NCBI GenBank assembly: GCA_038057845.1 | Contig: JBBUCK010000041.1 | Coordinates: forward strand, 1,042 to 65,041 | Source of the DNA: Patescibacteria group bacterium | GTDB taxonomy: Bacteria; Patescibacteriota; Minisyncoccia; Phycocordibacterales; JAGLPS01 | Reading direction: 5' to 3' | DNA: 64,000 nucleotides | In this document: in pieces, positions 1,739 to 43,427 of the stretch | How positions within the stretch are numbered: the first letter of the stretch is position 1 | Layout of the letters: the number at the start of each line of letters is the position of its first letter | The notes under the pieces: generated by a model | Told to the model about the DNA's origin: nothing | Seen by the model: only the letters and a program-made list of their open reading frames with translations | The model's database searches: none | Translations under genes and position numbers: made by a program

Positions 1739-3643
1739 ATGCACGATGAAAATAAAATCGTATATTTCGCCGAGACCGATTCTCGCGGAAAGAAGCAAAA
1801 ATTTGGCATAAAAACCAAAGACCGTTCCCGTCACGTCTATGTTATTGGAAAAACTGGAATGGGAAAATCAACCTTGCTTGAGAACATGGCTGTTCAAGAT
1901 ATTCAGAATGGCGAAGGTATGGCGTTTATTGACCCTCATGGCAAAACAGCTGAACTCCTCTTGGAATATGTGCCTGCATCTCGAATTCAAGATGTTATAT
2001 ATTTTGCCCCTTTTGATACTGACTTCCCTATTTCTTTTAATGTGATGGAAGATGTTGGAGCAGACAAACGCCATCTTGTTGCTAACGGTCTTATGAGCGC
2101 GTTTAAAAAAATCTGGGTGGATGCTTGGTCTGCCCGTATGGAATACATTTTGAATAATATTCTGCTCGCATTGCTCGAATATCCGGATTCAACACTTATC
2201 GGTGTCAACCGTATGCTTGCCGATAAGGATTATCGCAATAAGGTGGTTAACAATATTACCGACCCTTCCGTTAAAGCATTTTGGACTGATGAATTTGCCA
2301 AGTACGGTGACCGATACATGCAAGAAGCCGGTGCCGCCATTCAAAACAAGATTGGACAATTCATCGCGAACCCGCTTGTTCGAAATATCATCGGTCAACC
2401 GAAATCAACCTTTGATTTAAGAAAAGTTATAGACGAGCGAAAAATACTCATTATCAACCTCTCCAAAGGCCGTGTCGGGGAAGCAAATGCAAATCTTTTG
2501 GGAAGTATGTTGATTACCAAAATTTATCTCGGGGCAATGTCAAGAGCCGATACGAGCGAAAAGGAGCTGAATAAACTCCCGCCATTCTATCTTTTTGTTG
2601 ACGAGTTTCAATCTTTTGCCAATGAATCGTTTGCCGATATTCTTTCCGAGGCGCGGAAATATAAGCTCAATCTCACGATGGCGCATCAGTATATAGAGCA
2701 AATGTCCGAGGAGGTGCGCGCGGCTGTTTTTGGCAACGTTGGAACAATGATTATGTTTCGCGTTGGCGCGTATGACGCGGAAGTGCTGGAAAAGGAATTC
2801 GCTCCGGAGTTTACCGCCGAAGATCTGGTAAATTTGGGATTTACTCAAATTTATCTCAAACTTATGATTGATGGTGTCACATCTCATCCATTTTCCGCGA
2901 CATCGCTTCCTCCGATTGAAACTCCTACTATGTCTTCCAAAGATCAAATTATTGAATCTTCTCGAAAAATCTATGCTCGTTCACGCGCTGTTATTGAGGA
3001 ATATATCAGGGATTGGCATGCGCCCATCAAAAAAGAGGAGAAAAGGAGTAATGAGGAGCGGCCGTTTTCTTCACAGAAAGAGATTGTAAAAAACCATCCT
3101 AAGCCCTTTGTGCCGGCGACCCCTTTACCGACCACACAGAATCCTTTCAAGGCAATTGCTTTTGATGAAACAGGGAAGGCGGTGGTCGAAGTAGCGGTGA
3201 AAAAAGCCGCCGAAGGCCCGCATCTTGCGAGGCTCGCCTTCGGCGGCCCGCTTCGCCAGAGCGGTAGCGAGGCGAGCAAGCCTCCCGCAGAGGACGAGAC
3301 TCGCTTCAAGCAGCGCTCTTACGAGCGGGAAGAAAAACCAATTACTGCTCCTCAGGTCTCTCAAACACCAGTCTCTCTTAAAAATCTTAGAGTTGATGAT
3401 CCTAAGAAAAGGAGGGAACAAAAAGGTCCAAGTGAGAAAAATCTCTCGGAACTCAAAGCTGCTCTTGCAGATGTTTTACAATCACACGGTGGAAGTAAAA
3501 AAGAGGAGTCTCTAGAACCAAAGCAGGAAGTGAAAAAAGAAGAGCTTGTAGAAAAAAAGGAAACTTTAGTTTCAAATACTCTAAATAATCCTAAGGAAAT
3601 CTCCGAATCAACACTCAAAAAAATCTTAGAGGTTCCCAAGTAA
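1739..3643 (+). CDS. TraD/TraG/VirD4-like (TrwB/DUF87-type) coupling-protein ATPase with ~200-aa disordered K/E/P-rich C-terminal tail
   Basis: Walker A VIGKTGMGKST, FIDPHGK, Walker B LFVDEFQSF, HQY motif; C-terminal low-complexity region. Confidence 0.55.
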   Translation: MHDENKIVYFAETDSRGKKQKFGIKTKDRSRHVYVIGKTGMGKSTLLENMAVQDIQNGEGMAFIDPHGKTAELLLEYVPASRIQDVIYFAPFDTDFPISFNVMEDVGADKRHLVANGLMSAFKKIWVDAWSARMEYILNNILLALLEYPDSTLIGVNRMLADKDYRNKVVNNITDPSVKAFWTDEFAKYGDRYMQEAGAAIQNKIGQFIANPLVRNIIGQPKSTFDLRKVIDERKILIINLSKGRVGEANANLLGSMLITKIYLGAMSRADTSEKELNKLPPFYLFVDEFQSFANESFADILSEARKYKLNLTMAHQYIEQMSEEVRAAVFGNVGTMIMFRVGAYDAEVLEKEFAPEFTAEDLVNLGFTQIYLKLMIDGVTSHPFSATSLPPIETPTMSSKDQIIESSRKIYARSRAVIEEYIRDWHAPIKKEEKRSNEERPFSSQKEIVKNHPKPFVPATPLPTTQNPFKAIAFDETGKAVVEVAVKKAAEGPHLARLAFGGPLRQSGSEASKPPAEDETRFKQRSYEREEKPITAPQVSQTPVSLKNLRVDDPKKRREQKGPSEKNLSELKAALADVLQSHGGSKKEESLEPKQEVKKEELVEKKETLVSNTLNNPKEISESTLKKILEVPK

Positions 3644-6597: not shown

Positions 6598-7748
6598 CAC
6601 CTAAAAAAATTCTCATTGCTACAGGAATATATCCACCCGATATAGGGGGACCTGCCACATATTCAAAACTACTTGCGGACGAATTGCCAAAACACGGCAT
6701 TGAAGTAATGGTACTTACATTTGGTGCAGTGCGGCATCTGCCGAAGGTAATACGACACCTTGCTTATTTTTTTAAAACGCTTTCGCAAGGCAGAGAGGTA
6801 GATATTATTTATGCCCAAGACCCGGTAAGCGTTGGTCTACCGGCTTTATGGGCCGCACGACTGCTTAGAAAACGTTTCCTTCTTCGTTTGGGAGGAGATT
6901 ATGCTTGGGAGCAGGGTGTTGCGCGATTTGGAGTTAAGGATACCCTCGACGAGTTTGTCAAAAAATATGATGCATATCCGTTGTCTGTGCGAATGTTAAA
7001 GAAGATACAAACCTATGTTGCGCAACATGCAGAAACAGTAATTGTTCCAAGTCGGTATCTTGCAAGTATTGTGCAGGTTTGGGGAAGGAAAATAAATGTA
7101 AAAGTAATACATAATGCTTTTTCTCTCAATTCAGTTTCTGACAGTAATACATACACGTCTTATACTTTGACTCTTGTTCCAGAGAGTAAAGACGAACTTC
7201 GTAAAAAACTTAATTTTCAAGGGAAAGTTATTCTTTCTGCGGGTCGATTCGTCCCTTGGAAAGGTTTTGATATGCTTATTGAGATTATGCCTGATTTACG
7301 CAGAGAGGTACCTGATGCCTTTTTATACATTGTCGGTGAGGGTCCTGAACAGCCATTTCTGAAGACTTTAGTAGAAAAACATAATGCTTCAGAATACATA
7401 CATTTTCTTGGCACTCTTCCGCGTATAACACTACTCCAATACATTAAAGCTTCTGACGTATTTGCACTTAATACTGGCTACGAAGGGCTTTCCCATCAGC
7501 TTATTGAAGCGATGTCATTACATACTCCTGTAGTTACAACCAACATCCCAGGAAATAAAGAATTGATAAGAGATGGGATATCAGGAATACTTCTTAGCTA
7601 TAATGACAAAAAAGCGTTTACTGATACTTTGATTCGTGTTCTTTCTGAATTTGATACATCCGAGATCGTTAATCAAGCATTCGAAAAATCCCAGACATTT
7701 ACTTATAGCCGTATGATAAATGAAACAATTGACGCATTAGGCATATGA
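6594..7748 (+). CDS. glycosyltransferase family 4
   Basis: GT4-like two-domain architecture, GxEG...EAM motif; ATGA start/stop overlap with upstream GT. Confidence 0.8.
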   Translation: MTPKKILIATGIYPPDIGGPATYSKLLADELPKHGIEVMVLTFGAVRHLPKVIRHLAYFFKTLSQGREVDIIYAQDPVSVGLPALWAARLLRKRFLLRLGGDYAWEQGVARFGVKDTLDEFVKKYDAYPLSVRMLKKIQTYVAQHAETVIVPSRYLASIVQVWGRKINVKVIHNAFSLNSVSDSNTYTSYTLTLVPESKDELRKKLNFQGKVILSAGRFVPWKGFDMLIEIMPDLRREVPDAFLYIVGEGPEQPFLKTLVEKHNASEYIHFLGTLPRITLLQYIKASDVFALNTGYEGLSHQLIEAMSLHTPVVTTNIPGNKELIRDGISGILLSYNDKKAFTDTLIRVLSEFDTSEIVNQAFEKSQTFTYSRMINETIDALGI

Positions 7749-8848
7749 ACATTATCTCAATAAGCACAGACAGAAATATATGGCAGGAGACAAGTGCAGT
7801 GCGCGCACGGATGATTGAATACGGACAGCTATTTGATTCATTGCATATTATTGTTTTTTCAAAAAAGGGACACGATTTGCAACTCGTTCAATTGTCCGAC
7901 AATGTGTGGGCGTACCCAACAAACTCCTTTAATCAATGGTTGTATATTTTCGATGCTATTCGTCTCGGCAAACAACTCTTTGCTACAAGCTACAAGCTAC
8001 AAGCTACAAGCTGGCTCGTAACTGCTCAAGATCCCTTTGAAACAGGTTTTTGCGCGTGGATACTATCGCGGCTAATCGGCAGTAAATTAAATATTCAGAT
8101 TCATACTGATTTTTTGAGTCCATACTTTGTTAAGGGAAATGTTTTAAACAGAATCCGAGTTTTTTTAGCAGACTTTCTTTTACCGAAAGCTGATGGAATT
8201 AGAGTGGTATCCGATCGTATAAAGTCCTCTCTGCAAGCTACAAGCTACAAGCTAAAAGCTTCCCCCATTGTTCTGCCGATTTTTGTCGATGTGTTAAGTA
8301 TTGAGAATACTCAAATCACATTAGATTTGAAGGAAAAATATTCTCAATTTTCGCACATAATTCTTATGGCGACTCGGTTTGCCAAAGAAAAAAACATTTC
8401 TCTCGCTATTGACGCCTTCATACAGGTACTAGAGAAGCTACCCCGCGCAGGTCTTATCATTGTTGGTTCTGGACCTGAATGGGATAATTTAAGGCTTAAA
8501 GTAAAAGCATATAAGTTGTCAGAGAGTATTATCTTTGAACCATGGATAGGTTTTGAAACATTGATTTCTTACTATAAAACAACCAATTTACTTTTAAATA
8601 CCTCTTTATATGAAGGATACGGCCTCATTTTTGCTGAAGCAGCCGCATGCAATACTCCAATTGTTTCAACCGATGTTGGCATTGCCTCCGAAGTGGGCGC
8701 TACTATAGCCGACCATTCTGCTTCAAGTGTTGCCCAAAAGATTCTTGATGTCTTGGGCAATCCCAATCCCAGTCGACTACTCTATATTATTTCCAAAGAA
8801 GAGTATCTTTTAGATTATAAAAGCGCTTTATTGGGATTAGCAAGATAA
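7745..8848 (+). CDS. glycosyltransferase family 4 carrying two internal heptanucleotide (GCTACAA)n microsatellites
   Basis: EGYGLIFAEAAACNTPIVSTDVG GT4 motif; repeats at 7982-8012 and 8233-8260. Confidence 0.7.
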   Translation: MNIISISTDRNIWQETSAVRARMIEYGQLFDSLHIIVFSKKGHDLQLVQLSDNVWAYPTNSFNQWLYIFDAIRLGKQLFATSYKLQATSWLVTAQDPFETGFCAWILSRLIGSKLNIQIHTDFLSPYFVKGNVLNRIRVFLADFLLPKADGIRVVSDRIKSSLQATSYKLKASPIVLPIFVDVLSIENTQITLDLKEKYSQFSHIILMATRFAKEKNISLAIDAFIQVLEKLPRAGLIIVGSGPEWDNLRLKVKAYKLSESIIFEPWIGFETLISYYKTTNLLLNTSLYEGYGLIFAEAAACNTPIVSTDVGIASEVGATIADHSASSVAQKILDVLGNPNPSRLLYIISKEEYLLDYKSALLGLAR

Positions 8849-28772: not shown

Positions 28773-30534
28773 GGTATTTTTGGTGAAATTTAAACCATAA
28801 TGCTAGGCAAAGGAGGGACCAAATTTTATATTGAGCAGCATCGTTATGTTTTTGATAGAAATTATTAACTATATCCAGTATCTTTTCCTTTTTAAAGATT
28901 CTATATAATTCCGAATTTTCACTTAATGTTTTTTCTACAAATTTTTTTACTGTTTCTATTCGCAGCCATTCCTTAACAGGAGCACCGAATCCTTGTTTTT
29001 TCCTATATACAAAATCTTTTGGCATAATTTCACAGAGTATTTCTTTGAGAATTATTTTTCCGTTTTTCCTATCCATTTTGTATTTTTCAGGTAGATTATA
29101 GACAAATTCTGCAAGTGCATGGTCAAGGAAAGGTGATCGAATCTCAAGAGAATGCATCATGCTTGTCCGGTCTATTTTTGTGAGGAGTTGCCCAGGTAAA
29201 TATGTAGTAAGGTCGAAGAAGTTTATTTGTTGGGTACCATTTCCTTTAATTTTCCCAACATATTTTTTTTCAATACTGTCACTCAAAAATGAGATGTCTT
29301 TCCATAAGTCAAAACGATCTTTTTTTGAAAATATTGCTACATATTTTAAATGTTCTTTAAATTGATTTGAAACAAATATATTTTTTAGACGAACTATTTT
29401 GCGAGTATGCCAATATTTCCAATACCAGCCATAACCCATAAATAATTCATCAGCTCCGTCACCAGACATTGCTACTTTTACCTTCGACGATGCAAGTTCT
29501 GATATTAAGTGTTGAGAAAGATTGGATGAATCGGCATGTGGCTCATCCATGTATTCTATGACTTTTTCGAGCTCATGAGTTAATTCGCCCTTTACTTCTA
29601 AGGTGTAGTGGTCAGTTCCAATTTTTTTTGAAGCAAGTGAAGCATAGGGAAGTTCGTTTATATAATTTTCATATCCGACAGAAAATGTTTTAAGGGGATG
29701 CGTAGCATATTTCTGTGCATATGCAGTCACTAAAGTTGAGTCAACGCCTCCAGAAAGTAGACTTCCTATTTCAACATCAGCTACCATTCTTTTTTTTACC
29801 GCTTCATCAAAAAGTCTTTTTATTTCTTTTTTCGCATTATCATACGATATATTGATTGACTTGTTTTCAAGTTGCCAGTACTCCCAGGTTTCTAATTTTC
29901 CATTTTTTACGATACCTGCATGTGCTGGTAGAAGGGTATGAATATTTGAATATACAGTTTTCCATGGTGGTATATACATAAGTTGTAGGTAATTATCAAT
30001 TGCTATGAAATCAATCTTACCCTTAACTTCACCACTAGCAAAAAGCGCTTTAATTTCTGAAGCTCCCCAAAACATATCACCAACCCATGTGTAGTAGAAT
30101 GGTTTTTTACCAAATCTGTCACGTGCTATAAAAAGTTCCTGCTTAGACTCATTCCAAATAGCAAATGCGAACATTCCATCCAAATACTCTGGACACTTTC
30201 TTCCATATTCTGTATATGCTTTTAATATAACTTCAGTATCGGAATTAGTACTAAATATATGTCCTAATTCTTCAAGTTTTTTCCGAGTATCTTTATAACC
30301 ATAAATTTCTCCGTTGAAGACTATAGTGTACGGATGAGCGGTATCTTTCATTGGCTGATGTCCGCCTGAAATATCAAGAATAGAAAGACGAGTTTGAGCA
30401 AGGGTGCAGTTATCATATGTACACACACCTGTATCATCTGGGCCGCGTTTTGAAAGGGAAGAGAGCATGGAATCAATTTTTTCTTTTTCCAAATTTCCCG
30501 CAGTTTTCCCTACAATTGCAATTATTCCGCACAT
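28765..30534 (-). CDS. asnB: asparagine synthase (glutamine-hydrolysing)-type amidotransferase, likely sugar-amidating (WbpS-like) given context
   Basis: MCGIIAIVG N-terminal nucleophile Cys, SGGVDS PP-loop. Confidence 0.85.
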   Translation of the reverse strand: MCGIIAIVGKTAGNLEKEKIDSMLSSLSKRGPDDTGVCTYDNCTLAQTRLSILDISGGHQPMKDTAHPYTIVFNGEIYGYKDTRKKLEELGHIFSTNSDTEVILKAYTEYGRKCPEYLDGMFAFAIWNESKQELFIARDRFGKKPFYYTWVGDMFWGASEIKALFASGEVKGKIDFIAIDNYLQLMYIPPWKTVYSNIHTLLPAHAGIVKNGKLETWEYWQLENKSINISYDNAKKEIKRLFDEAVKKRMVADVEIGSLLSGGVDSTLVTAYAQKYATHPLKTFSVGYENYINELPYASLASKKIGTDHYTLEVKGELTHELEKVIEYMDEPHADSSNLSQHLISELASSKVKVAMSGDGADELFMGYGWYWKYWHTRKIVRLKNIFVSNQFKEHLKYVAIFSKKDRFDLWKDISFLSDSIEKKYVGKIKGNGTQQINFFDLTTYLPGQLLTKIDRTSMMHSLEIRSPFLDHALAEFVYNLPEKYKMDRKNGKIILKEILCEIMPKDFVYRKKQGFGAPVKEWLRIETVKKFVEKTLSENSELYRIFKKEKILDIVNNFYQKHNDAAQYKIWSLLCLALWFKFHQKYHE

Positions 30535-30540
30535 ATATTA

Positions 30541-30650
30541 AAAGTCTATAAAGTTCATAAAGTTTGTAAAGTCTATAAAGTCCATGAGAGTCTTAAAGTT
30601 CATAAAGTCGAAAGTCTATAAAGTCTTTATAAAACCGGAAAGCAATCTAG
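30541..30650. repeat. array of ~9 (C/T)ATAAAGTC-type short repeats
   Basis: aaagtctataaagttcataaagtttgtaaagtctataaagtcc...cataaagtcgaaagtctataaagtct. Confidence 0.7.
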
Positions 30651-30960
30651 AAATTTCAATGCATAAATTATAATATTTTTCGTATTGTTCTTTACTTATG
30701 TATTTAAGGTCTAAAGCTAGATATAACATTGACCTAATTTCTCCGCACGAACCTTTGGCAACAAATAAAAAATGTTTTAATTCCTTATCACCCCTTCTTT
30801 CAAAGCCCTCGGCAATATTATTCATTATCGATACGGATGCTCTTTGTATTTGATCCCTAAAACCAAAATCTTCACTGCCCTTAAATGTTTTATAAATAGA
30901 TAATGTTAATTCCATTGCTTTCTGCCAAGCTATAATATCTTCAAATTTTTCTATTTTCAT
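30616..30960 (-). CDS. four-helix-bundle protein (PF05635; '23S rRNA intervening-sequence protein'/Avd-like), copy A
   Basis: MKIEKFEDIIAW...IMNNIAEGFERRGDKE...KGSCGEIRSMLYLA; 86% identical to copy at 35728-36072. Confidence 0.8.
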   Translation of the reverse strand: MKIEKFEDIIAWQKAMELTLSIYKTFKGSEDFGFRDQIQRASVSIMNNIAEGFERRGDKELKHFLFVAKGSCGEIRSMLYLALDLKYISKEQYEKYYNLCIEISRLLSGFIKTL

Positions 30961-31003
30961 AAGACTTTTGACTTTAAAGACTTTACGGACATTTGACTTA
31001 TAG
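30961..31003. repeat. inverted-orientation GACTTT(A/T) repeat array upstream of 4HB copy A
   Basis: aagacttttgactttaaagactttacggacatttgactta. Confidence 0.65.
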
Positions 31004-31891
31004 TTTTATCCACTCTTTTGGCATAAGGTCCCTAATATCGTTTTTTGGAGCACCCTCAAACCATTTTTGTGGAGCGACCACAATCTTATCTTTTCGCGGA
31101 TTAAGCCACGCGCCCCACCAACTGAAGCTTGAATTGGCGATGATATGGTTTTTACATTGAGACATTAATATCATATCCTCATGATTTTTTTCCTTTCCGT
31201 TTCCTACCAGAGTGAAGGGATATTTAAGAGTTTTGAATGTTTCCGCAGCCCATTCATAATTGTCTGAGAAAATAAAAAAATGAGGAGATTTCACATGCTT
31301 GACTATGTGCTCTATAGCACGTTCGTAGTACTCGGGTGAGCATAAACTATGCCATGGTTTATGTTTTGACTCTGTATCGAAACGTGTATCGAAACGTCTT
31401 ACATGAATTGATACGGATTGCGTTTTTTGTATCTCCTCCTGTATTTTTTGGCTCTGCGGAGAGAGAGCAGCTTTCAGGGTTATTTCTTTACGCACATCAT
31501 CCTCTATGTTTTTAAAATACTTTTCTGTCTGCCAGAAACCGTCGAAATACGTTGTCCCTTTGCGTGAAAAAACATTTTGGTCGTACATAAAAGTTTTTTC
31601 CATGTAATACCAAAGACGCAGGATTTTATTAAACTTTAGGCGATGGTAAATAAAATTAAAGAATGTATTATGTTTGCGTAACCACACGAAACCAAACATG
31701 TCAGTTTCTTTTGCAATGTGCTCCTGTATATTGAATTTCGATAATTCGTAGGAGTCGGATTTGTAGTATGTATGGAAAGGAGTTACATCAAGTCGGAAGT
31801 TAGTTTTCGTGCTTACAGAGACTCCTCGCGCAAAAGCGTATTGGAATAGTTGATTGCCAAGACCGCCATTGAGTTTGACAATGATTGTCAT
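30998..31891 (-). CDS. GT11 alpha-1,2-fucosyltransferase
   Basis: KLNGGLGNQLFQYAF motif I; C-terminal IIANSSFSWWGAWLN. Confidence 0.8.
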   Translation of the reverse strand: MTIIVKLNGGLGNQLFQYAFARGVSVSTKTNFRLDVTPFHTYYKSDSYELSKFNIQEHIAKETDMFGFVWLRKHNTFFNFIYHRLKFNKILRLWYYMEKTFMYDQNVFSRKGTTYFDGFWQTEKYFKNIEDDVRKEITLKAALSPQSQKIQEEIQKTQSVSIHVRRFDTRFDTESKHKPWHSLCSPEYYERAIEHIVKHVKSPHFFIFSDNYEWAAETFKTLKYPFTLVGNGKEKNHEDMILMSQCKNHIIANSSFSWWGAWLNPRKDKIVVAPQKWFEGAPKNDIRDLMPKEWIKL

Positions 31892-32802
31892 GATGCCTTT
31901 TTAGTAAATATACGCTTAATGAAGCTTTTTAAGCTTCTCTCTTTAACGTGAATGATAAATGCACGGGGGAGTCGTATAAGAAGTAGCAAAGCGGTGAGAG
32001 GACGATAAGGAGTTCCCCGTAAAGCCTCCATGTGCCCCCCGAAGTAACTTTTAAATCGTCCAAATGGGAACATTTGGTTCTTTTCAGGATTTACAAATCC
32101 CATCTCTGTAACCTGATTTTGCCGGTTGGTAAGACTCAATTGCGGACTTGAATATCCTCCAAGGCGTTTTTTAAAGAGCATTTTCGGATCAACCATAACT
32201 CCAAAACGGCTTATGGCGGCAAGACCAATATGGTAATCTTGTCCCCACACACGTCGCTGTGGGTATGCCTGCCATATAGCCTTCGCAGCTTCAGTTCTGT
32301 AGAGCACGTATAGAAGGTTATTTTTGCCGAACCCTTCTGGTTCTAGCACATAACGTGCTACCTGCATATAACTTGGTTTGCCAGAGAGGTTCACCATCCA
32401 CGGTGACTCTAGTACTGTTCTCCCAAATGAATCTATCGTTTTGTTGCATGTAGTCGCTACTCCAATACCCTTATCTTTTTCCAAGTACTCAACACAGGTT
32501 TGCAAGTAGTCTTTTTCCCACATGTCATCTTGAGCTGCCCACATGAAATATTCGCTGTCCCCACGGTCGAGTGTAAATTTGAAATTGGCAAATAGACCAA
32601 GATTTTTCTCTTGTTTAATATACTTGATTCGAGCATCTTTTCTTGCGTATTCCTCACAGATTGCCTGCGTCCTATCTTTTGATGTGTCATCAGAAATAAG
32701 CATGACCCAATCGGTGTAAGTTTGTCCTATTAACGATTCAATCGCTTGACTGATGAACCGCTCCCCATTGTATGCAGGCATTCCTATAAATATTTTTGTC
32801 AT
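31888..32802 (-). CDS. GT2 glycosyltransferase
   Basis: IFIGMPAYNGERFISQAIESLIGQTYTDWVMLISDDTSKDRT. Confidence 0.7.
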   Translation of the reverse strand: MTKIFIGMPAYNGERFISQAIESLIGQTYTDWVMLISDDTSKDRTQAICEEYARKDARIKYIKQEKNLGLFANFKFTLDRGDSEYFMWAAQDDMWEKDYLQTCVEYLEKDKGIGVATTCNKTIDSFGRTVLESPWMVNLSGKPSYMQVARYVLEPEGFGKNNLLYVLYRTEAAKAIWQAYPQRRVWGQDYHIGLAAISRFGVMVDPKMLFKKRLGGYSSPQLSLTNRQNQVTEMGFVNPEKNQMFPFGRFKSYFGGHMEALRGTPYRPLTALLLLIRLPRAFIIHVKERSLKSFIKRIFTKKAS

Positions 32803-32803
32803 A

Positions 32804-33673
32804 TTAAATGAGTGATTTTTTAAAGCTAATCATTATTTCCTCCAATCTCTCATTATCTATAGCAGGGAGGTGCAACCCCAATGATGTAGCTTTGGCATTG
32901 GATAACACACAGTTAGTTCGTTTTGCTTTCGTGATCCCTCCCTCACCCTCCAGTTCTTCAAGTGAAATAATGGTATATGTGTGGTGGGGGTTGACTATTT
33001 TTTTGTAGGATTCCAAAATTTGCTGATGATCTATGTAGCCACTGTTAGTTATATTCAAAATTCCATGTGGTTGTAAAAAGGCCAGTTTTTCCAGAGCGGC
33101 CCACAAATCTTCAACCAGGGTTACCGAATTAGGCATGGAAATCACCTTAGGATAAGAAACAATTTTGTTTATTAAGTTTCGCGGATGGGAAAATGTGGCT
33201 ATCGGCAGTCTGATTCTTACTTGCAAAACAGGTAGTTTTTCCAATGCCTTTTGCATGACAATGCGCATTTGTGAATAAAAACTGCCAAAAAAATTAGGCT
33301 CATCCTCTTCGGTAAAAGCGGTTTCCTTACTACCGGTATATAGACATCCTGTGGAGATTTGGATGGGGTAAACACCAGTTTCTAGGGCCGCCAGTGTGAC
33401 ATTTAATACTCCGCCAACATTGATTTTTACAGTTTCTGCTTTGTTGTCTTCACACCAATCAATAGTTGGATAAGCTTTTGCTCCGGAAAGATTAATAACT
33501 ACTTCAGGCCTTACTTTTTTAAATGTAGCTATCAAAGTAGGAAAATCGGTAACATCAATTCTAGAAGTGAAAACTTGATGCCCACGTTTTTTTAAATAGT
33601 TGGCCATTCCTTCACCCAAAAAACCACTTGCTCCAAGAATATAAAATTTTATTGGTTTAATATTTTCTAGCAT
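32804..33673 (-). CDS. NAD(P)-dependent sugar-nucleotide epimerase/reductase (SDR family)
   Basis: ILGASGFLGEGMANYL Rossmann motif. Confidence 0.6.
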   Translation of the reverse strand: MLENIKPIKFYILGASGFLGEGMANYLKKRGHQVFTSRIDVTDFPTLIATFKKVRPEVVINLSGAKAYPTIDWCEDNKAETVKINVGGVLNVTLAALETGVYPIQISTGCLYTGSKETAFTEEDEPNFFGSFYSQMRIVMQKALEKLPVLQVRIRLPIATFSHPRNLINKIVSYPKVISMPNSVTLVEDLWAALEKLAFLQPHGILNITNSGYIDHQQILESYKKIVNPHHTYTIISLEELEGEGGITKAKRTNCVLSNAKATSLGLHLPAIDNERLEEIMISFKKSLI

Positions 33674-33748
33674 AAAATTTTTTTAAAAAATGAAGCCAAG
33701 GTAACCAGAAATCGGTATTTTCCGTTTAGTTTTCATAATAAATTATAA

Positions 33749-34432
33749 TCAACCAACTCTTTTTAAATAACCGTTTACATTAAAAGTAGCGTTTTTCCCG
33801 AACATATCGCAGTATTTTCTGTCGGAAGTAAAGTTTTCATTTGATTCAAGAAACTCACGTATCGCTTTAAGTGGTCCACCATGAAAACCCTCCTCACGTC
33901 TCAATGTGCTCACTATTCCATCCTCTACAATATAGTACGACCCTATACTCACAAGAGGAGAGAACGTATATAGTGCTTCAAGGCTGTCTTCGTACATATG
34001 AGAAGCATCCTCAATCACAAGTATTTTTTTGAAAACTTTTGCTTCATTAATATCATAATTTTTGAAACCTCCAGTGAATAATTTTATACGAGGATGCATT
34101 GCAACTATATCGGAGGTTTTCTTTTCAATATCTATACTATGTATTGTCCCGTGACCGAGAATATTCATCATGTCAGCGATATATAATGTAGTTCCGCCAA
34201 GATTAGTTCCTATTTCAATGACAAGATCTGGTTTTATTTCAGAAATAATCATTTGGTACATGACATAATCAAATGGACAGCGAAGAGCGGGAATACCCCG
34301 ATATAGCACATTAAAAGTTCCCGAGTAGATCGTTCTGGCATTAAAAAGAACTTTTTCCTCGTCTGGAACGTGTAGAAGTCTTCTTCTTATCAGTTTGATG
34401 GCTGTTTTAGCTTTTTTGAAAGGGTTAAACAT
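33749..34432 (-). CDS. CmcI/cephalosporin-hydroxylase-family class I methyltransferase (sugar O-methyltransferase-like)
   Basis: LVIEIGTNLGGTTLYIADMM and overall CmcI-like layout. Confidence 0.6.
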   Translation of the reverse strand: MFNPFKKAKTAIKLIRRRLLHVPDEEKVLFNARTIYSGTFNVLYRGIPALRCPFDYVMYQMIISEIKPDLVIEIGTNLGGTTLYIADMMNILGHGTIHSIDIEKKTSDIVAMHPRIKLFTGGFKNYDINEAKVFKKILVIEDASHMYEDSLEALYTFSPLVSIGSYYIVEDGIVSTLRREEGFHGGPLKAIREFLESNENFTSDRKYCDMFGKNATFNVNGYLKRVG

Positions 34433-34438
34433 CGTATT

Positions 34439-35704
34439 TTATTCTATATCCCACTTAAGGCGCGGCCTTACTACACCTGGAATGCGTTGATTGAAATCCA
34501 TTTTCTTTGTGTGCTCTATATCCTCAACCACTTGAAAGGTGATGGCCTCGCGTTCATAAAGGTGTATTTTAAGAGGCATCATAGTTGAGATAGCGACGCC
34601 GACTATATACGTACCATCATTAAGAAGGTCTTTCGGTATCCATGCTGTTGTTTTATGTATTCCCACATTATCAAGCTTCTCATGAAAATCAGCGTGACTT
34701 ATGAAAGCGTACTCTTCTCTATTTGTGAAGACATGAATATTGGGAGTGGGGGAGAAGCTTTTTTGTAGAACTTCATACACAATTTCAACCCCAACTTCTT
34801 GATTTGAGTAGGCGTAGGGGGCAGACTTACCCTCTGTGTTAATGAGTCTCACTGAATTGAGGTGAACAATTTCGTTTCCAGGACGTTCCCGCTCTTTCCA
34901 AATCGTTTCTGTGTCGTTTGAATTTGTGCTATTGAGGTAGTAATTGACGACTTCCTCCGTCTTTCCAAACATTTCTACTTGCCCTTTTTTGAGCAAAATG
35001 GTTTTCGAACAAAGTCGCTGAATTGCTGCCATATTATGGCTCACGAAGAGAATTGTGCGTCCTTTCTTACTTGTGACCTCTTCCATTTTGCCGAGACATT
35101 TTTTTTGAAATTCTGCATCACCGACAGCGAGGACTTCATCAACAAGGAGAATGTCTGGTTCCATATGAGCAGCCACAGAGAAAGCAAGGCGGACATACAT
35201 ACCACTCGAGTAATATTTCACAGGGGTGTCAAGGAATTTTTCAATACCAGAAAAGGCGACAATTTCGTCAAATTTCTTCACAATTTCTTTTTTGGTCATA
35301 CCGAGAATAGCACCGTTAAGAAAGATATTTTCTCGTCCGGTAAGCTCAGGGTGAAAGCCGGTGCCGATTTCAAGAAGCGAGGCGACTTTTCCGTGCATAA
35401 CGATTTCACCCTCGGTCGGTGGAGTGATGCCTGTGAGAATTTTCAAAAGTGTGGATTTTCCGGCCCCATTTCTCCCAATAATACCGATTATTTCGCCCTG
35501 TTTAATTTGAAGGTTAATGTTCTTGAGTGCCCAAAATTCTTCTTTTTTTTCAAGTCCTACCACCTGTTTCACTTTATTTTTTGCAAACCGAAAAGGATTT
35601 TTAAAAACATTTGTAAGCACATCACGCAACGCAATATATCCACCTCGTCCCCGTGTGATATTATATTTTTTCCCTACGTTTTTTATTTCAATGATAGAGT
35701 CCAT
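34439..35704 (-). CDS. wzt: ABC transporter ATP-binding protein, Wzt/TagH/KpsT-type with C-terminal extension (putative glycan-binding domain)
   Basis: GIIGRNGAGKST Walker A, LSGGQ-like YSSGM, ILLVDEVLAVGD; 421 aa (~170-aa C-terminal extra domain). Confidence 0.8.
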   Translation of the reverse strand: MDSIIEIKNVGKKYNITRGRGGYIALRDVLTNVFKNPFRFAKNKVKQVVGLEKKEEFWALKNINLQIKQGEIIGIIGRNGAGKSTLLKILTGITPPTEGEIVMHGKVASLLEIGTGFHPELTGRENIFLNGAILGMTKKEIVKKFDEIVAFSGIEKFLDTPVKYYSSGMYVRLAFSVAAHMEPDILLVDEVLAVGDAEFQKKCLGKMEEVTSKKGRTILFVSHNMAAIQRLCSKTILLKKGQVEMFGKTEEVVNYYLNSTNSNDTETIWKERERPGNEIVHLNSVRLINTEGKSAPYAYSNQEVGVEIVYEVLQKSFSPTPNIHVFTNREEYAFISHADFHEKLDNVGIHKTTAWIPKDLLNDGTYIVGVAISTMMPLKIHLYEREAITFQVVEDIEHTKKMDFNQRIPGVVRPRLKWDIE

Positions 35705-35742
35705 AAAGTTTGTAAAGTCATTAAAGTCTATAAAGTCTTGAT
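35701..35742. repeat. ATAAAGTC-type repeat array downstream of 4HB copy B
   Basis: ccataaagtttgtaaagtcattaaagtctataaagtcttg. Confidence 0.65.
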
Positions 35743-36072
35743 AAATCCCGAAAGCAACCTTGAGATTTCAACAGATAAATTATAATACTTTTCGTATTCT
35801 TCTTTATTTATATATTCAAGACTTAGAGCCAAATATAACATTGACCTAACTTCTCCACATGACCCCTTCGCAATAAATAAGAAATGTTTGAATTCTTTAT
35901 CACCTCTCCTTTCAAACCCCTCGGCAATATTATTCATTATTGACACAGACGCTCTTTGTATTTGGTCTCTAAATCCAAAATCTTTACTACTTATGAACGC
36001 TTTATAAATAAGTAGCGTTAATTCTTTTGCCTTTTCCCATGCTATGATATCTTCAAATTTTTCTATTTTCAT
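35728..36072 (-). CDS. four-helix-bundle protein (PF05635/Avd-like), copy B, located between wzm and wzt
   Basis: 98/114 aa identical to copy A; ~60 bp of 3' flank and 5' flank also conserved between copies. Confidence 0.8.
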   Translation of the reverse strand: MKIEKFEDIIAWEKAKELTLLIYKAFISSKDFGFRDQIQRASVSIMNNIAEGFERRGDKEFKHFLFIAKGSCGEVRSMLYLALSLEYINKEEYEKYYNLSVEISRLLSGFIKTL

Positions 36073-36117
36073 ATAACTTTTGACTTTACGGACTTTATAG
36101 ACCTTTGACTTTTTACT
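36073..36117. repeat. inverted-orientation GACTTT(A/T) repeat array upstream of 4HB copy B
   Basis: ataacttttgactttacggactttatagacctttgacttttt. Confidence 0.65.
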
Positions 36118-36939
36118 CTATATGATATCAGCGAAATATCGTTCAACTTTTTTGAAATAAATTATGCCAATAGTGAAAAGCACAGCACATGCGGCAAAAG
36201 AAATTGAAACAAGTGCAAAATTAATAGGCGCTGTGCCGAGGAGCCCTGCGCGTGCAGTTTGAATGACGCCCATCATTGGATTGAATGCGAGGATCCATGA
36301 ATATTTTCCTGCGATACTCGCTGGATAAATAACAGGGGTAATAAAGAGAAGAATTTGGATGAAAAAGGGAAGTATGTAACGAACATCGCGATATTTTACA
36401 TTGACTGCGGCGAGGAAAAGCCCACCCCCGACTGCTGCCATGAAAGTAATCATAAGAAGGATGGGGAGAATGAGAACCCCTGCTAGGTGTGGTGCATAGC
36501 CATAATAGACCATCATCCCTACGAGGATGACCGAGGAAATAGCGAAATCAACAAACTTTGTCGCCACTGCTGAAAGAGGGAGAATAAGGCGAGGGAAATA
36601 GACTTTGGTGATAATTGATTGGTTGCTAATGAGAACATTGCTTGTTTCTGAAAGAGCACTTGAAAAAAATTGCCAAAAGAGGAGGCCTGTGTAGACAAAA
36701 ATTGGGTAAGGAATCCCATCGGAGGGAATCTTAAGAAGTGTGCCAAAAAAGAAACTAAAAACAACCATTGTCATAAACGGTTGAAAAACTGCCCATAGAA
36801 CGCCGATGACAGTTTGTTTGTAGCGTACCTTAAAATCACGCCAGGTAAAAAAATAGAGAAGCTCTTTGTAACGCCAAACCTCTTTCAGGTCCTCAAAGCT
36901 GAATACTTTTTTCGGTTTTATAACGGTAACTTTACTCAT
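36118..36939 (-). CDS. wzm: ABC-2 type transporter permease (Wzm/TagG-like)
   Basis: 6 TM helices, 273 aa, adjacent to wzt-type ATPase. Confidence 0.75.
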   Translation of the reverse strand: MSKVTVIKPKKVFSFEDLKEVWRYKELLYFFTWRDFKVRYKQTVIGVLWAVFQPFMTMVVFSFFFGTLLKIPSDGIPYPIFVYTGLLFWQFFSSALSETSNVLISNQSIITKVYFPRLILPLSAVATKFVDFAISSVILVGMMVYYGYAPHLAGVLILPILLMITFMAAVGGGLFLAAVNVKYRDVRYILPFFIQILLFITPVIYPASIAGKYSWILAFNPMMGVIQTARAGLLGTAPINFALVSISFAACAVLFTIGIIYFKKVERYFADII

Positions 36940-40845: not shown

Positions 40846-43062
40846 TTATTCGCTATTTTTACTCTCGTGTTCCAAATCTGCCATTACCATAAGCTTTGCC
40901 AATTCCTTAAATGTGACGTTTGGCTTCCAGCCGAGTTTATTTTTTGCTTTTGAGTAGTCTCCTAAAAGTATATCAACTTCTGCTGGTCTAAAATATTTCA
41001 GGTCAACTTCAATAATAGTTTTACCTGTCTTTCTATCAATACCTTTTTCATTGAGACCTTTGCCTTTCCAGACAATGTCCATATCAAGATATTTTGCCGT
41101 TTCCTCAATAAATTCCCGAACAGTGTGCGTTTCGTTTGTCGCGAGAATGAAATCATCGGGGTTTTTGTGCTGGAGAATAAGCCACATACCATAGACAAAA
41201 TCTTTCGCGTAACCCCAGTCTCGCTTCGCGTCCAAATTACCCAAGTAGAGTTTCTTCTCCTTGCCTAATTGTATACGTGAAAGCCCTCGAGTTATTTTTC
41301 GTGTAACGAATGTTTCGCCGCGGCGGGGGGAATTATGCACGCGTGCTTTTCCAATTCCACAATGGAATTCTCCCGAAGAAGTTTCTAAATCGTAAAACCA
41401 ACCATCGTACTTCTGGATTTCCAAAATTTTTTTCACTTCAGAAGGCTCTTTCTTGAGATGGTGCGTGTCGCATGCAAAACCACCATGTTGGATTTTTCTT
41501 ATAAATGTACGCGAGATCCCCGTTATGTGCGCCATTTCTCTTTGTGATACTCCAGTGCCCACGAGTTGTCTTATAGATTGTTCCTTGAATACATTATTTG
41601 TGGTGGTGAGAATATTCAGTGAATAAAATATTCTGCCATCGTCTTTTGTCTCTACAGTGAGGTTAATATTTTGTTGTGTGGTTTTGTCGATAAGATACCA
41701 CAATCCCATGGCTAATGTGGGGGAATTCGTCTTGAAGTTCTTGAATTCATAAGTGCAGGGGTTTGCTTTCAAGCCGTCACATACATTATAGCCGCGCAAG
41801 AACGCAAGCATGACATGCGAAGGGGCGTTCAAAATAACTTTTGGCACGCGCTTAGTCTTATCTTTGTTATAGATATCGATACTGCGTAGCCAATTATTGC
41901 CACCAGCTAGTTGTAGCTGTCCTACGATATTTTTCTGATTAAAACCTGAACGGGAAGGATAGTATAGTGTGTGACCGCCAGTAACCTTTTTCCATAACAT
42001 ATCGAAATGTTGTCGTAATAGTGGATCCGAGTTTGTGAACTTAGCATGGACACCGATGCCTTTGGTGGCGTATGTGGCGGAACCGTCACCTACCATCATA
42101 CCCATAAGCTCCGCCTCTTCTTCGGAATTGGGTAATTGGCGACTTTGCGTATCTGGTTTAGGAAGATCAATGGAGTCAATACAGTCTCCGATTGCAATGT
42201 TCCCAGTTTCTTTTTCTTCTCCCCCTTTCATAAATACAACATGACTGGAAGTTGCCATGAATGCACCAGATCGTGCATTGATAAAGCGCGGATGTTTATT
42301 CTCCCTTTCAGTATCGTGCGGATAGGCGGAAGCAAATGTCACATCAACCCATCCCTGTTTGCTCCATACTTGCACCCCCGAAACTTCTTTTGATTGATAA
42401 TGCTTAAGAGATTCGTTGAATGTTACTATTTCTCGAATTGGTTTTATGTTAAATTCATTCGAACCGGTTTCTTTGCAAAACATAGGCATAAAAGATGACA
42501 CTGTCTCGTGATTGAATAAAATTCCGTTTGAAGCAAACATCCCATACGCTTCTCGATAGTTTTTTGTTATCCAATAGGCGTAAAGTTTAGCCACGCCGTA
42601 CGGTGAGCGAGGGTGGAAAGGAGTTTTTTCTGTTAACGGTAATTCAACCGTCTTACCGAACATCTCAGAGGATGAGGCTTGGTAAAACTTAGTTTTAGTT
42701 AGTCCGGTTTCGCGCATTGCGTCCAGAAGGCGAAGTGTACCAAGTCCTGTGACATCCCCAGTGTATTCCGGCATATCAAAGCTAACACGTACATGGCTCT
42801 GCGCACCTAAATGATAGATTTCATTAGGTTTAATTTCACTTAAAATACGGTTAAGATTACTCCCATCAGACAGATCTCCATAATGGAGAAATAATTTGAT
42901 GTTGTTTATATGGGGATCTTTATAGAGATGGTCAATCCTATCAGTATTAAACGTACTTGCTCGTCTGATAATGCCATGAACTTCATATCCTTTTTCAAGA
43001 AGGAGTTCAGCCAAATAAGACCCGTCCTGTCCGGTGATGCCTGTAATAAGAGCTTTTTTCAT
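40846..43062 (-). CDS. gmd: GDP-mannose 4,6-dehydratase interrupted by a ~391-aa intein (precursor 738 aa)
   Basis: N-extein [22 protein letters not shown]...ILFNHE and C-extein [16 protein letters not shown] match the conserved Gmd NHESPRRG region split by an insertion. Confidence 0.85.
41332..42504 (-). mobile_element. intein with LAGLIDADG homing-endonuclease domain inserted in gmd
   Basis: block B ATSSHVV (TxxH); two LAGLIDADG motifs [10 protein letters not shown] and [12 protein letters not shown]; block [25 protein letters not shown] ending HN + Ser(+1); N-terminal boundary uncertain (residue after NHE is Thr; a Cys lies 9 aa downstream). Confidence 0.7.
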
Positions 43063-43170
43063 AAAGTTTATAAAGTCGAAAGTCTATAAAGTCCTTAAAG
43101 CCATAAAGTTCCTGAAGCTCAAAAGCGGTAGTGGTGTACTTTACGAACTTTTAACTTTCAGACTTTTGAC
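43063..43170. repeat. bipartite inverted array: ATAAAGT(C/T) repeats (43063-43115) then GACTTT-type repeats (43135-43170) around a short central spacer, immediately upstream of gmd
   Basis: cataaagtttataaagtcgaaagtctataaagtccttaaagccataaagttcc...ctttacgaacttttaactttcagacttttgacta. Confidence 0.65.
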
Positions 43171-43178
43171 TATTTTTC

Positions 43179-43427
43179 CTACCATTTATTAATTTTAGTA
43201 ACAACTTTTTTCTTAATCGTCAAGTAGGAGTTTGTTGCCGCTTTTTCCATGTTAGGCGAAATAAGACGAAGAATTTCTTTTCCCAAAATTCGGTATTGAC
43301 CGCCAACTTTGTTTGCTCTAATAAGCCCCTTTTTAAGAAAGCGTTTTATAGTGCTCTCGCTTACCTTCAGAAATTGTTGTGTTTCCAAGGAGGTATATAC
43401 AGCATTTGGTTTTATCTCTTGTTCCAT
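43179..43427 (-). CDS. small helix-turn-helix DNA-binding protein, excisionase/MerR-like (HTH_17-type)
   Basis: VYTSLETQQFLKVSESTIKRFLKKGLIRANKVGGQYRI resembles excisionase-family HTH. Confidence 0.5.
   Translation of the reverse strand: MEQEIKPNAVYTSLETQQFLKVSESTIKRFLKKGLIRANKVGGQYRILGKEILRLISPNMEKAATNSYLTIKKKVVTKINKW

Follow-up and report, generated by a model that had tools for sequence, protein, structure and literature searches.

We analyzed a 64,000-nucleotide stretch of DNA from a Patescibacteria group bacterium (GenBank assembly GCA_038057845.1, contig JBBUCK010000041.1), hereafter called the window, in which a minus-strand glycan operon of approximately 17 kb is split into four blocks by three elements built from inverted arrays of short tandem repeats. 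Two of these elements (A and B) enclose a gene for a four-helix-bundle (4HB) protein of 114 residues, and the third is a hairpin without an open reading frame (ORF). All three occupy intercistronic spacers, namely those between the GT11 gene and asnB, between the exporter genes wzm and wzt, and between a presumable helix-turn-helix (HTH) gene and gmd. On the coding strand, both 4HB genes have a purine-rich AAAGTC-type array of 9-nt units on the 5' side and a complementary GACTTTAT array on the 3' side.

The ORF of element A (30616..30960, minus strand) encodes a protein of the PF05635/TIGR02436 family. Its 5' arm (30961..30997, minus strand; GTCAAATGTCCGTAAAGTCTTTAAAGTCAAAAGTCTT on the coding strand) constitutes the whole spacer from the stop codon of the GT11 gene (30998-31000) to the start codon of the 4HB gene (30958-30960), and it pairs with the 3' arm in the minimum free energy (MFE) fold. 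The 3' arm (30541..30626, minus strand) contains, when read on the coding strand, about 9.8 units of GACTTTATN, for which Tandem Repeats Finder (TRF) reports a period of 9, and ends 6 nt upstream of the asnB start codon (30532-30534). The final codons and the stop codon of the ORF (AAG ACT TTA TAG) are themselves one repeat unit. Element B has the same composition. Its ORF (35728..36072, minus strand) encodes a protein of 114 residues with 86% identity to that of element A, and its 5' arm (36073..36117, minus strand; AGTAAAAAGTCAAAGGTCTATAAAGTCCGTAAAGTCAAAAGTTAT on the coding strand) takes up the spacer from the stop codon of wzm (36118-36120) to the start codon of the 4HB gene. Five units of GACTTTATN found by TRF form the 3' arm (35694..35738, minus strand), which overlaps the last codons of the ORF, and the wzt start codon (35702-35704) lies inside one of its repeat units (ACTTTATGGAC). 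In the MFE fold of element B (z = -2.8), the two arms are likewise paired with each other.

The ORF-less hairpin (43063..43178, minus strand) joins a 5' arm of the AAAGT type to a 3' arm of the ACTTT type through a loop of about 20 nt. It makes up the entire spacer between the stop codon of an 82-residue ORF (43179-43427), which resembles an HTH protein by eye, and the gmd start codon (43060-43062). The predicted fold has an energy of -29.5 kcal/mol (z = -2.9), and over 39 nt its 3' arm shares 92% identity with the 3' arm of element A.

The arrays are made of contiguous 9-nt units according to TRF. We could rule out a CRISPR array, since CRISPR repeats of about 24–48 nt are separated by unique spacers and the units found here have none. 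The single word TAAAGTC is hardly enriched in the window (18 observed, 12.4 expected), but the two-unit pattern AAAGTYNNNAAAGTY occurs 13 times against an expectation of 0.13. All 13 matches fall at three places, the two 4HB genes and 43063-43166, and the arrays are thereby confined to the three elements within the window rather than scattered over it. An Rfam search of the window gave no match, placing the elements outside rRNA. Promoter and terminator scans over 28–44 kb yielded counts not above those of shuffled sequences, with no terminator inside the elements.

Profile searches assigned both proteins to PF05635, as the original prediction based on the sequence of the window had proposed, with scores of 127.1 and 121.1 bits against a cut-off of 33.8 (E-values of 4e-37 and 3e-35), and to TIGR02436, with scores of 119.7 and 114.6 against a cut-off of 24. 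The AlphaFold2 monomer model (pLDDT 94.9) contains four helices, and its best matches in Foldseek are 2GSC (Xcc0516, TM 0.88) and 2RLD (BT_0352, TM 0.85), both of which were solved with five chains; the sequence match to 2GSC has an E-value of 2e-12. The RxxxSxxxNxxE motif noted for the family (PMC3936711) is present as R40, S44, N48 and E51. All 56 homologues compared have S44, N48 and E51, and R40 is almost invariant in them. The protein is under strong purifying selection, with a dN/dS of 0.056 between the two copies. The family is large, as phmmer retrieved 16,795 clusters at 50% identity (E ≤ 0.001). No PADLOC defence model matched the 4HB protein, and the phage genomes searched contained no homologue.

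The same layout recurs in homologous loci across phyla. Scanning one genome per species, we retrieved 554 relatives and kept 80 loci, of which 72 were usable. They originate from Patescibacteria, Bacteroidota, Spirochaetota, Omnitrophota, Neomarinimicrobiota and others, with 62–69% identity of the 4HB protein across phyla. Two of the loci belong to cultured isolates, Segatella hominis and Labilibacter sediminis, which indicates that the layout is not a binning artefact. In the 72 loci, AAAGT occurs 4.18 times per 100 nt upstream of the gene and ACTTT 4.22 times per 100 nt downstream, compared with a background of 0.2–0.25, and the opposite words stay at background on either side. At least two AAAGT words upstream together with at least two ACTTT words downstream were found in 64 of the 72 loci, so that homologues elsewhere nearly always carry the arrays. 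Both refutation criteria named in the original prediction were decided in its favor, as the arrays are restricted to the three sites in the window and accompany nearly all homologues. The duplex between the arms has a median z of -5 against shuffles, with about 40 bp formed from 70-nt windows. When the prediction is restricted to the spacers, which have a median length of 55 nt, the stem has a median of 28 bp, starting 2 nt past the upstream stop codon and ending 7 nt before the downstream start codon (medians). In 62 of 69 loci, both neighboring genes have the orientation of the 4HB gene. Of 74 loci, 70 have a 5' arm with a higher purine content than the 3' arm. A repeat unit forms the last codons and the stop codon in 31 of 77 ORFs, suggesting that ORF and arms behave as one unit. 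At least 13 ORF-less hairpins made of AAAGT/ACTTT arrays were also present in the fetched loci. The 4HB elements reside in dozens of unrelated contexts, including cas operons, suf genes, conjugation operons and rRNA, and in two loci (L004 and L025) they lie directly upstream of wzm.

More distant members of the family retain this chassis with a different unit of 7–9 nt. The loci already fetched contain the units TTAGGGA/TCCCTAA, GTGAAA/TTTCAC and AAAATTCA/TGAATTTT. Finished plasmids of cultured organisms, among them cyanobacteria and Riemerella, contain GGGAAAA, GGTTYAA, GGTGACA, AGGAGTC, GGAGATA, GGGAGTA and GGGTGTA, with duplex z-scores of -4.4 to -11 for L173–L177. The settings on these plasmids include cas6-4HB-cas4 (in Anabaena sp. 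90), cas10-4HB-cmr3 and conjugation-type operons. We had also considered a strict specificity of the protein for the repeat sequence, which was weakened by locus L076, where a protein with 65% identity is accompanied by TTAGGGA arms. The 5' arm resembles a Shine-Dalgarno sequence (AGGAG, GGAG, GAGG) in cyanobacteria and Azospirillum and is A-rich in Bacteroidota and Patescibacteria. Because a symmetric inverted repeat is unchanged by flipping, a polarity of the ORF that is fixed across unrelated units points to a constraint acting on the transcript.

One of the plasmid matches, from Azospirillum lipoferum (L172), is located inside a 23S rRNA gene, as an Rfam match to the large-subunit rRNA extends across the locus. 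By comparison with the E. coli 23S sequence, its insertion position is presumably helix 45. On its two sides, the PF05635-like ORF has GAGGACGGATGACAGAGGACGG and CCGTCCTCTGTCTTCTGTCATCCGTC, i.e., arms of the GAGGACG/CGTCCTC type. The chassis of inverted tandem arrays is hence shared by a genuine 23S rRNA intervening sequence (IVS), although our comparison with a true rRNA IVS comprises this one Azospirillum example. The termini of the IVS in Coxiella form a 28-bp stem that is cut by RNase III, and this IVS has been called selfish (PMC4990558). IVP ORFs have also been described within 16S and 23S insertions of the candidate phyla radiation (PMC11270868).

We compared occupied and empty junctions in 80 metagenomic loci encoding Wzm relatives with 68–88% identity to Wzm of the window. 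About 44 relatives have nothing inserted at the wzm|wzt junction, where the genes are separated by -4 to 22 nt, typically as a stop codon, 4 nt and ATG. A 4HB element with AAAGTC arrays occupies the junction in L093, L094, L100, L147 and L149. Other relatives hold different cargo at the same place. An ORF of about 130 residues with a PDDEXK_3 (GxxExxY-type) nuclease fold was found in L095 (2772-3289), L099 (2099-2578), L136 (3322-3805) and L084, and decayed remnants of such an element are present in L086, L088 and L159. This cargo has inverted tandem arrays of its own, ATACRAAT upstream and ATTYGTAT downstream, which indicates that the hairpin chassis is not exclusive to the 4HB gene; a plasmid search for GxxExxY cargo gave no match. 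Cargo without obvious arrays includes a PemK/MazF-like gene (L084, L087, L089, L090, L098, L154, L160, L161 and L149), a NYN gene (L083) and an AAA ATPase gene (L151). The PemK/MazF-like toxins are solitary at this junction, with no visible antitoxin. The wzm|wzt junction of related Patescibacteria is a hotspot of single-gene insertions. In L156, the spacer of an otherwise empty junction (3320-3332) reads CTTTATGACTCAT and looks like one leftover GACTTTATG unit; from its sequence, it could be the scar of a lost element.

Nostoc plasmids offer a second comparison. In L165 and L169 (also L173, from Nostoc punctiforme pNPUN01), 4HB elements are inserted at different junctions of one conserved operon, so that empty and occupied junctions are reciprocal. 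Junction 1 reads TAG-GTT-ATG when empty and TAA-[element]-ATG when occupied, and junction 2 reads TAATG and TAA-[element]-ATG, respectively. The two elements are of different lineage, the arms being GGGAAAA in one element and AGGAGTC in the other. Together with the empty junctions in relatives, the reciprocal Nostoc junctions make the elements look like mobile, IVS-like single-gene elements. We count the identity across phyla and the low GC content of the ORFs (29–31%, with 29% for copy A, against 38.7% for the window) as further signs of horizontal spread.

Taken together, the architecture is conserved across phyla while the unit varies between lineages, the arms remain complementary and the 5' arm remains purine-rich. 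Placement is precise to the junction, presence and absence are polymorphic, ORF-less derivatives exist, and the ORF has a defined polarity relative to the arms. We consider it probable, with some reserve, that each locus is an IVS-like selfish hairpin element lodged in an intercistronic spacer. Such an element would be co-transcribed with the operon, and its arms would pair into a stem reaching from about 2 nt after the upstream stop codon to about 7 nt before the downstream start codon, by which the insertion would be folded out of the way. By analogy with the IVSs of Coxiella and Leptospira, the stem is probably a substrate of RNase III, whose cleavage would divide the polycistronic RNA into segments. 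The purine-rich 5' arm presumably doubles as the ribosome-loading region of the ORF, which the 3' arm could mask. Arms made of tandem repeats would keep pairing after slippage because any register still pairs. The 4HB protein may bind the stem and aid the persistence or spread of the element. Since Avd, a relative in fold, binds an RNA stem-loop in the ribonucleoprotein of diversity-generating retroelements (DGRs) (bioRxiv 10.1101/2023.10.23.563531), binding of the 4HB protein to the stem of its own element is a reasonable guess by analogy.

A wider generalization is tentative, and we hold it to be rather doubtful. It states that PF05635 IVS proteins and inverted array arms constitute a large transposase-less class of mobile elements targeting rRNA hairpin loops and the stop/start junctions of operons, in which a 4HB pentamer would recognize its own stem and drive maintenance or spread. 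The intergenic heptamer-to-nonamer families, such as cyanobacterial STRR, the GGGAATC pairs of Xanthomonas and the paired sites of Geobacter, would then largely be arms and ORF-less relics.

Several observations weigh against an IVS-like hairpin element. The whole-element fold of copy A is no better than shuffles (z = -1.0), for which reason the fold energy alone does not carry the argument, and the stems are A/U-rich. The arms have no G-U asymmetry (32 loci favoring sense versus 39 favoring antisense, p = 0.25), which does not separate an RNA-level stem from a DNA-level inverted repeat. The co-orientation of the neighbors in 62 of 69 loci is weak evidence because genes of Patescibacteria are mostly co-oriented anyway. 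Among the distant members, 3 of 15 do not fit, L170 and L179 having same-sense arrays on both sides and L178 lacking a 5' arm. Neither a transposase nor conserved termini were found at the compared empty and occupied junctions. A target-site duplication is at most possible as ATG or TG in one Nostoc case, with none at wzm|wzt. Mobility is thus read from the distribution of the elements, and transcription, cleavage and protein–RNA binding are steps that we infer. The IVS protein of Coxiella has been reported as probably not made in vivo (PMC4990558).

The elements could instead be transposons at the DNA level resembling MITEs (miniature inverted-repeat transposable elements), with the arrays as terminal inverted repeats (TIRs) whose reiterated sites would be bound either by the 4HB protein itself or by a transposase or recombinase with its gene elsewhere; copies that include 4HB would be full-length elements, the gene-less hairpin an internal-deletion derivative, and the RNA hairpin a by-product. 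Inverted arms, ORF-less derivatives, the missing G-U strand asymmetry and orthologous sites that are empty in some genomes and occupied in others all suit this explanation, as do similar paired arrays in Geobacter metallireducens, to which insertions of IS110 and IS481 are drawn at a fixed distance (PMC2700814). However, no transposase is nearby in the examined loci, the only ORF inside the elements of the window encodes a helical bundle of 114 residues, and the compared junctions show no clear target-site duplication. The arms are also tandem arrays that vary freely in length and unit number, with a unit not conserved across the family, rather than unique TIRs. In 70 of 74 loci, the ORF has one fixed polarity with respect to the purine-rich arm, which a symmetric TIR would not require, and almost all elements are oriented in the sense direction of their operon. 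We therefore regard a MITE-like transposon as unlikely. Alternatively, the hairpin might have come first as an independent intergenic family of the REP/BIME, STRR or GGGAATC type, whose loops were entered later by small selfish genes such as 4HB, the GxxExxY nuclease or IS110. ORF-less hairpins are indeed common, arrays without a described gene link exist in Xanthomonas, Nostoc, Beggiatoa and Geobacter, and the PDDEXK_3 ORF with its own ATACRAAT/ATTYGTAT arrays sits at the same wzm|wzt junction. Such a late entry of the gene appears quite improbable to us, because the AAAGTY unit travels with the gene across phyla within a 4HB subfamily of 62–88% identity, ORF and arms form one unit in the 31 of 77 ORFs ending in the repeat, and rRNA IVSs carry ORF and arms together.

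Hairpin and 4HB protein could also be a regulatory module beneficial to the host, tuning the glycan operon, e.g., by decoupling the stoichiometry of wzm and wzt or by stabilizing mRNA segments. The strong purifying selection on the protein, the retention of copy B at wzm|wzt in several lineages and the elements just upstream of wzm in L004 and L025 could be understood in this way. The dozens of unrelated contexts, the empty and tightly coupled wzm|wzt junction of most close relatives and the unrelated cargo at this junction (MazF-like, NYN, PD-(D/E)XK nuclease and ATPase) speak against it, and we give this explanation little credence. The original prediction had described the two copies as direct repeats. 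It had correctly located both ORFs, 114 residues each with 98 of 114 residues in common, the inverted arrays on both sides of each gene, found again by TRF and as reverse-complement arrays, and copy B between the exporter permease gene (wzm, 36118..36939, minus strand) and the ATPase gene (wzt, 34439..35704, minus strand), an odd place for such a gene. The copies have the same orientation, are 5.1 kb apart and bracket the GT11, GT2, epimerase, CmcI-type methyltransferase and wzt genes, from which a glycan-variation switch was proposed, in which recombination would delete or duplicate the 5-kb block. The flank conserved between the copies, put at about 60 bp per side, is nearer 40–45 bp and consists of the arrays. 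A dS of 1.29, 83% DNA identity and a longest exact match of 27 bp identify A and B as old, selected paralogues and poor recombination substrates. Copy B is not a recent copy of A; it is orthologous to copies in other organisms, with 88–90% identity to the wzm|wzt copies of L093 and L100, closer than its 86% identity to copy A. Four other contigs with the exact proteins, from other samples, have the same two contexts and no deletion junction. Deletion of the block is thus unsupported and weakly refuted, and a recombination switch is very improbable. In a neighbor-joining tree of 94 4HB proteins, the copies at the wzm site seem to fall into at least four clades, with the little resolution that 114 residues afford. 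The proteins could lastly be orphan Avd accessory proteins of a DGR with its reverse transcriptase (RT) elsewhere. The Avd link drawn in the original prediction holds only at the level of superfamily and fold: the model superimposes on Avd structures 4DWL and 8UB7 with TM 0.76–0.79, Avd as well as 2GSC and 2RLD are pentamers of four-helix bundles, and Avd binds a structured RNA element. It fails against the models for DGR Avd (NF033474, 24.7 bits against a cut-off of 80) and bAvd (PF22296, 20.9 against 40), the identity is 12–14%, and the genomic setting differs. Pfam scans of 47 window ORFs gave no RT domain, in agreement with the prediction that no RT is visible, and the loci have no pair of template and variable repeats, the arm arrays being the only repeats there. 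We consequently rejected an orphan Avd identity as hardly credible.

A contig from another sample (L002) matches the window exactly over 1.46 kb apart from 34 differences in a patch of about 120 bp (30978-31096). The differences are packed into the last ~100 nt of the GT11 gene and the 5' arm of element A, and the L002 version of this arm is similar to that in the ORF-less hairpin at 43.07 kb. The sequences suggest a local conversion between arms.

The ORF-less hairpin, the connection to rRNA IVSs and the general, polymorphic nature of the elements in many phyla had been overlooked in the original prediction. The elements share a PF05635 ORF, complementary termini forming a long stem and a GC content below that of the host with the 23S rRNA IVSs of Leptospira, Coxiella burnetii and Azospirillum lipoferum (L172), and the arms of the Azospirillum IVS are likewise tandem arrays, in this case of 7–8-nt units. 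The 23S rRNA IVSs are regarded as selfish and horizontally spread, and the Coxiella stem is cut by RNase III (PMC4990558). Unlike rRNA IVSs, the elements of the window lie between protein-coding cistrons with arms abutting stop and start codons, so that excision would cut an mRNA instead of fragmenting an rRNA. The ORF-less hairpin (43063-43178) also resembles the Correia elements of Neisseria and the ERIC sequences of enterobacteria. These are inverted-repeat elements in transcribed intergenic regions that form RNA hairpins, and Correia elements have been reported to be RNase III substrates. However, Correia and ERIC elements have TIRs of unique sequence and target-site duplications and are not known to carry an ORF, whereas the elements described here have tandem arms of 7–9-nt units, a lineage-specific unit, no evident target-site duplication and, in many copies, a conserved gene.

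Tandem 7–9-nt units in intergenic or intercistronic spacers, often as convergent pairs at variable distance, are likewise known from cyanobacterial STRR (GGGGAYT), Xanthomonas (GGGAATC), Beggiatoa (TAACTGA) and Geobacter metallireducens. The Xanthomonas GGGAATC arrays form convergent pairs (PMC4692102), and the TAACTGA repeats end 1 nt before start codons (PMC4679880). In G. metallireducens, paired inverted repeats of 7–9 nt at nifD|nifK and trpC|trpB2 were published as binding sites of a global regulator (PMC2700814, supplementary Table S4), and IS110 and IS481 insert at a fixed distance from such pairs (PMC2700814). The Geobacter sites look like the same kind of hairpin and may serve as landing pads for other mobile elements. 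These papers interpret the arrays as G-quadruplexes or regulator-binding sites and, as judged by term searches within them, do not mention a PF05635 gene between the arrays (PMC4692102, PMC2700814, PMC4679880).

The presence of PD-(D/E)XK (PDDEXK_3) cargo at the same wzm|wzt junction recalls homing endonucleases, although the 4HB protein has no recognizable nuclease motif. Free-standing homing endonuclease genes are single small selfish genes placed precisely between conserved neighbors with presence/absence polymorphism, and they are not known to have flanking inverted arrays. IVP genes between cas genes have been interpreted as functional partners (PMC3936711). In our literature search, which left subscription journals largely outside, we did not find PF05635 genes described as hairpin-flanked intercistronic elements, and the novelty is accordingly provisional.

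The window is chromosomal DNA of a metagenome-assembled genome, with SecA, MurB, Obg and GatB encoded nearby. The genes flanking element B, wzm for an ABC-2 permease upstream and wzt for an ABC ATPase with a Wzt_C domain downstream, are its context and no part of the element. The gmd-like ORF next to the ORF-less hairpin (40846-43062, minus strand) encodes 738 residues with two GDP-mannose dehydratase/epimerase stretches and looks like a tandem fusion of two short-chain dehydrogenase/reductase enzymes. Elsewhere, a GT4 glycosyltransferase ORF (7745-8848, plus strand) contains two same-sense tracts about 220 bp apart, (GCTACAA)x4.4 at 7982-8012 and (CAAGCTA)x3.9 at 8234-8260; as a 7-nt unit shifts the reading frame, these could be slipped-strand phase-variation tracts. 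A 98-bp unit occurs twice (1435-1662) in the spacer that separates a DUF4015 gene from a TraG/VirD4-like ATPase gene, and this unit holds a TTTTGC-TTCG-GCAAAA hairpin. A near-identical hairpin lies in the loop of an ORF-less array hairpin in L147 and L149.

The origin and purpose of the rRNA IVS and its conserved ORF have been a puzzle since the early 1990s, as have the arrays in the intergenic regions of cyanobacteria, Xanthomonas and Geobacter. If the elements are what we propose, both puzzles would concern one element, and rRNA IVSs would be one special form of an intercistronic lodger that is much more common. The model can be tested directly in cultured carriers whose genomes are finished (Nostoc punctiforme, Anabaena sp. 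90, Riemerella and Segatella). For annotation, it would mean that genes of four-helix-bundle proteins in cas, glycan and conjugation operons are probably lodgers and not functional partners, and that the hairpins may segment operon mRNAs. In the Patescibacteria genome described here, a surface-glycan operon of approximately 17 kb carries three interruptions, and none of the flanking genes appears to have been lost.

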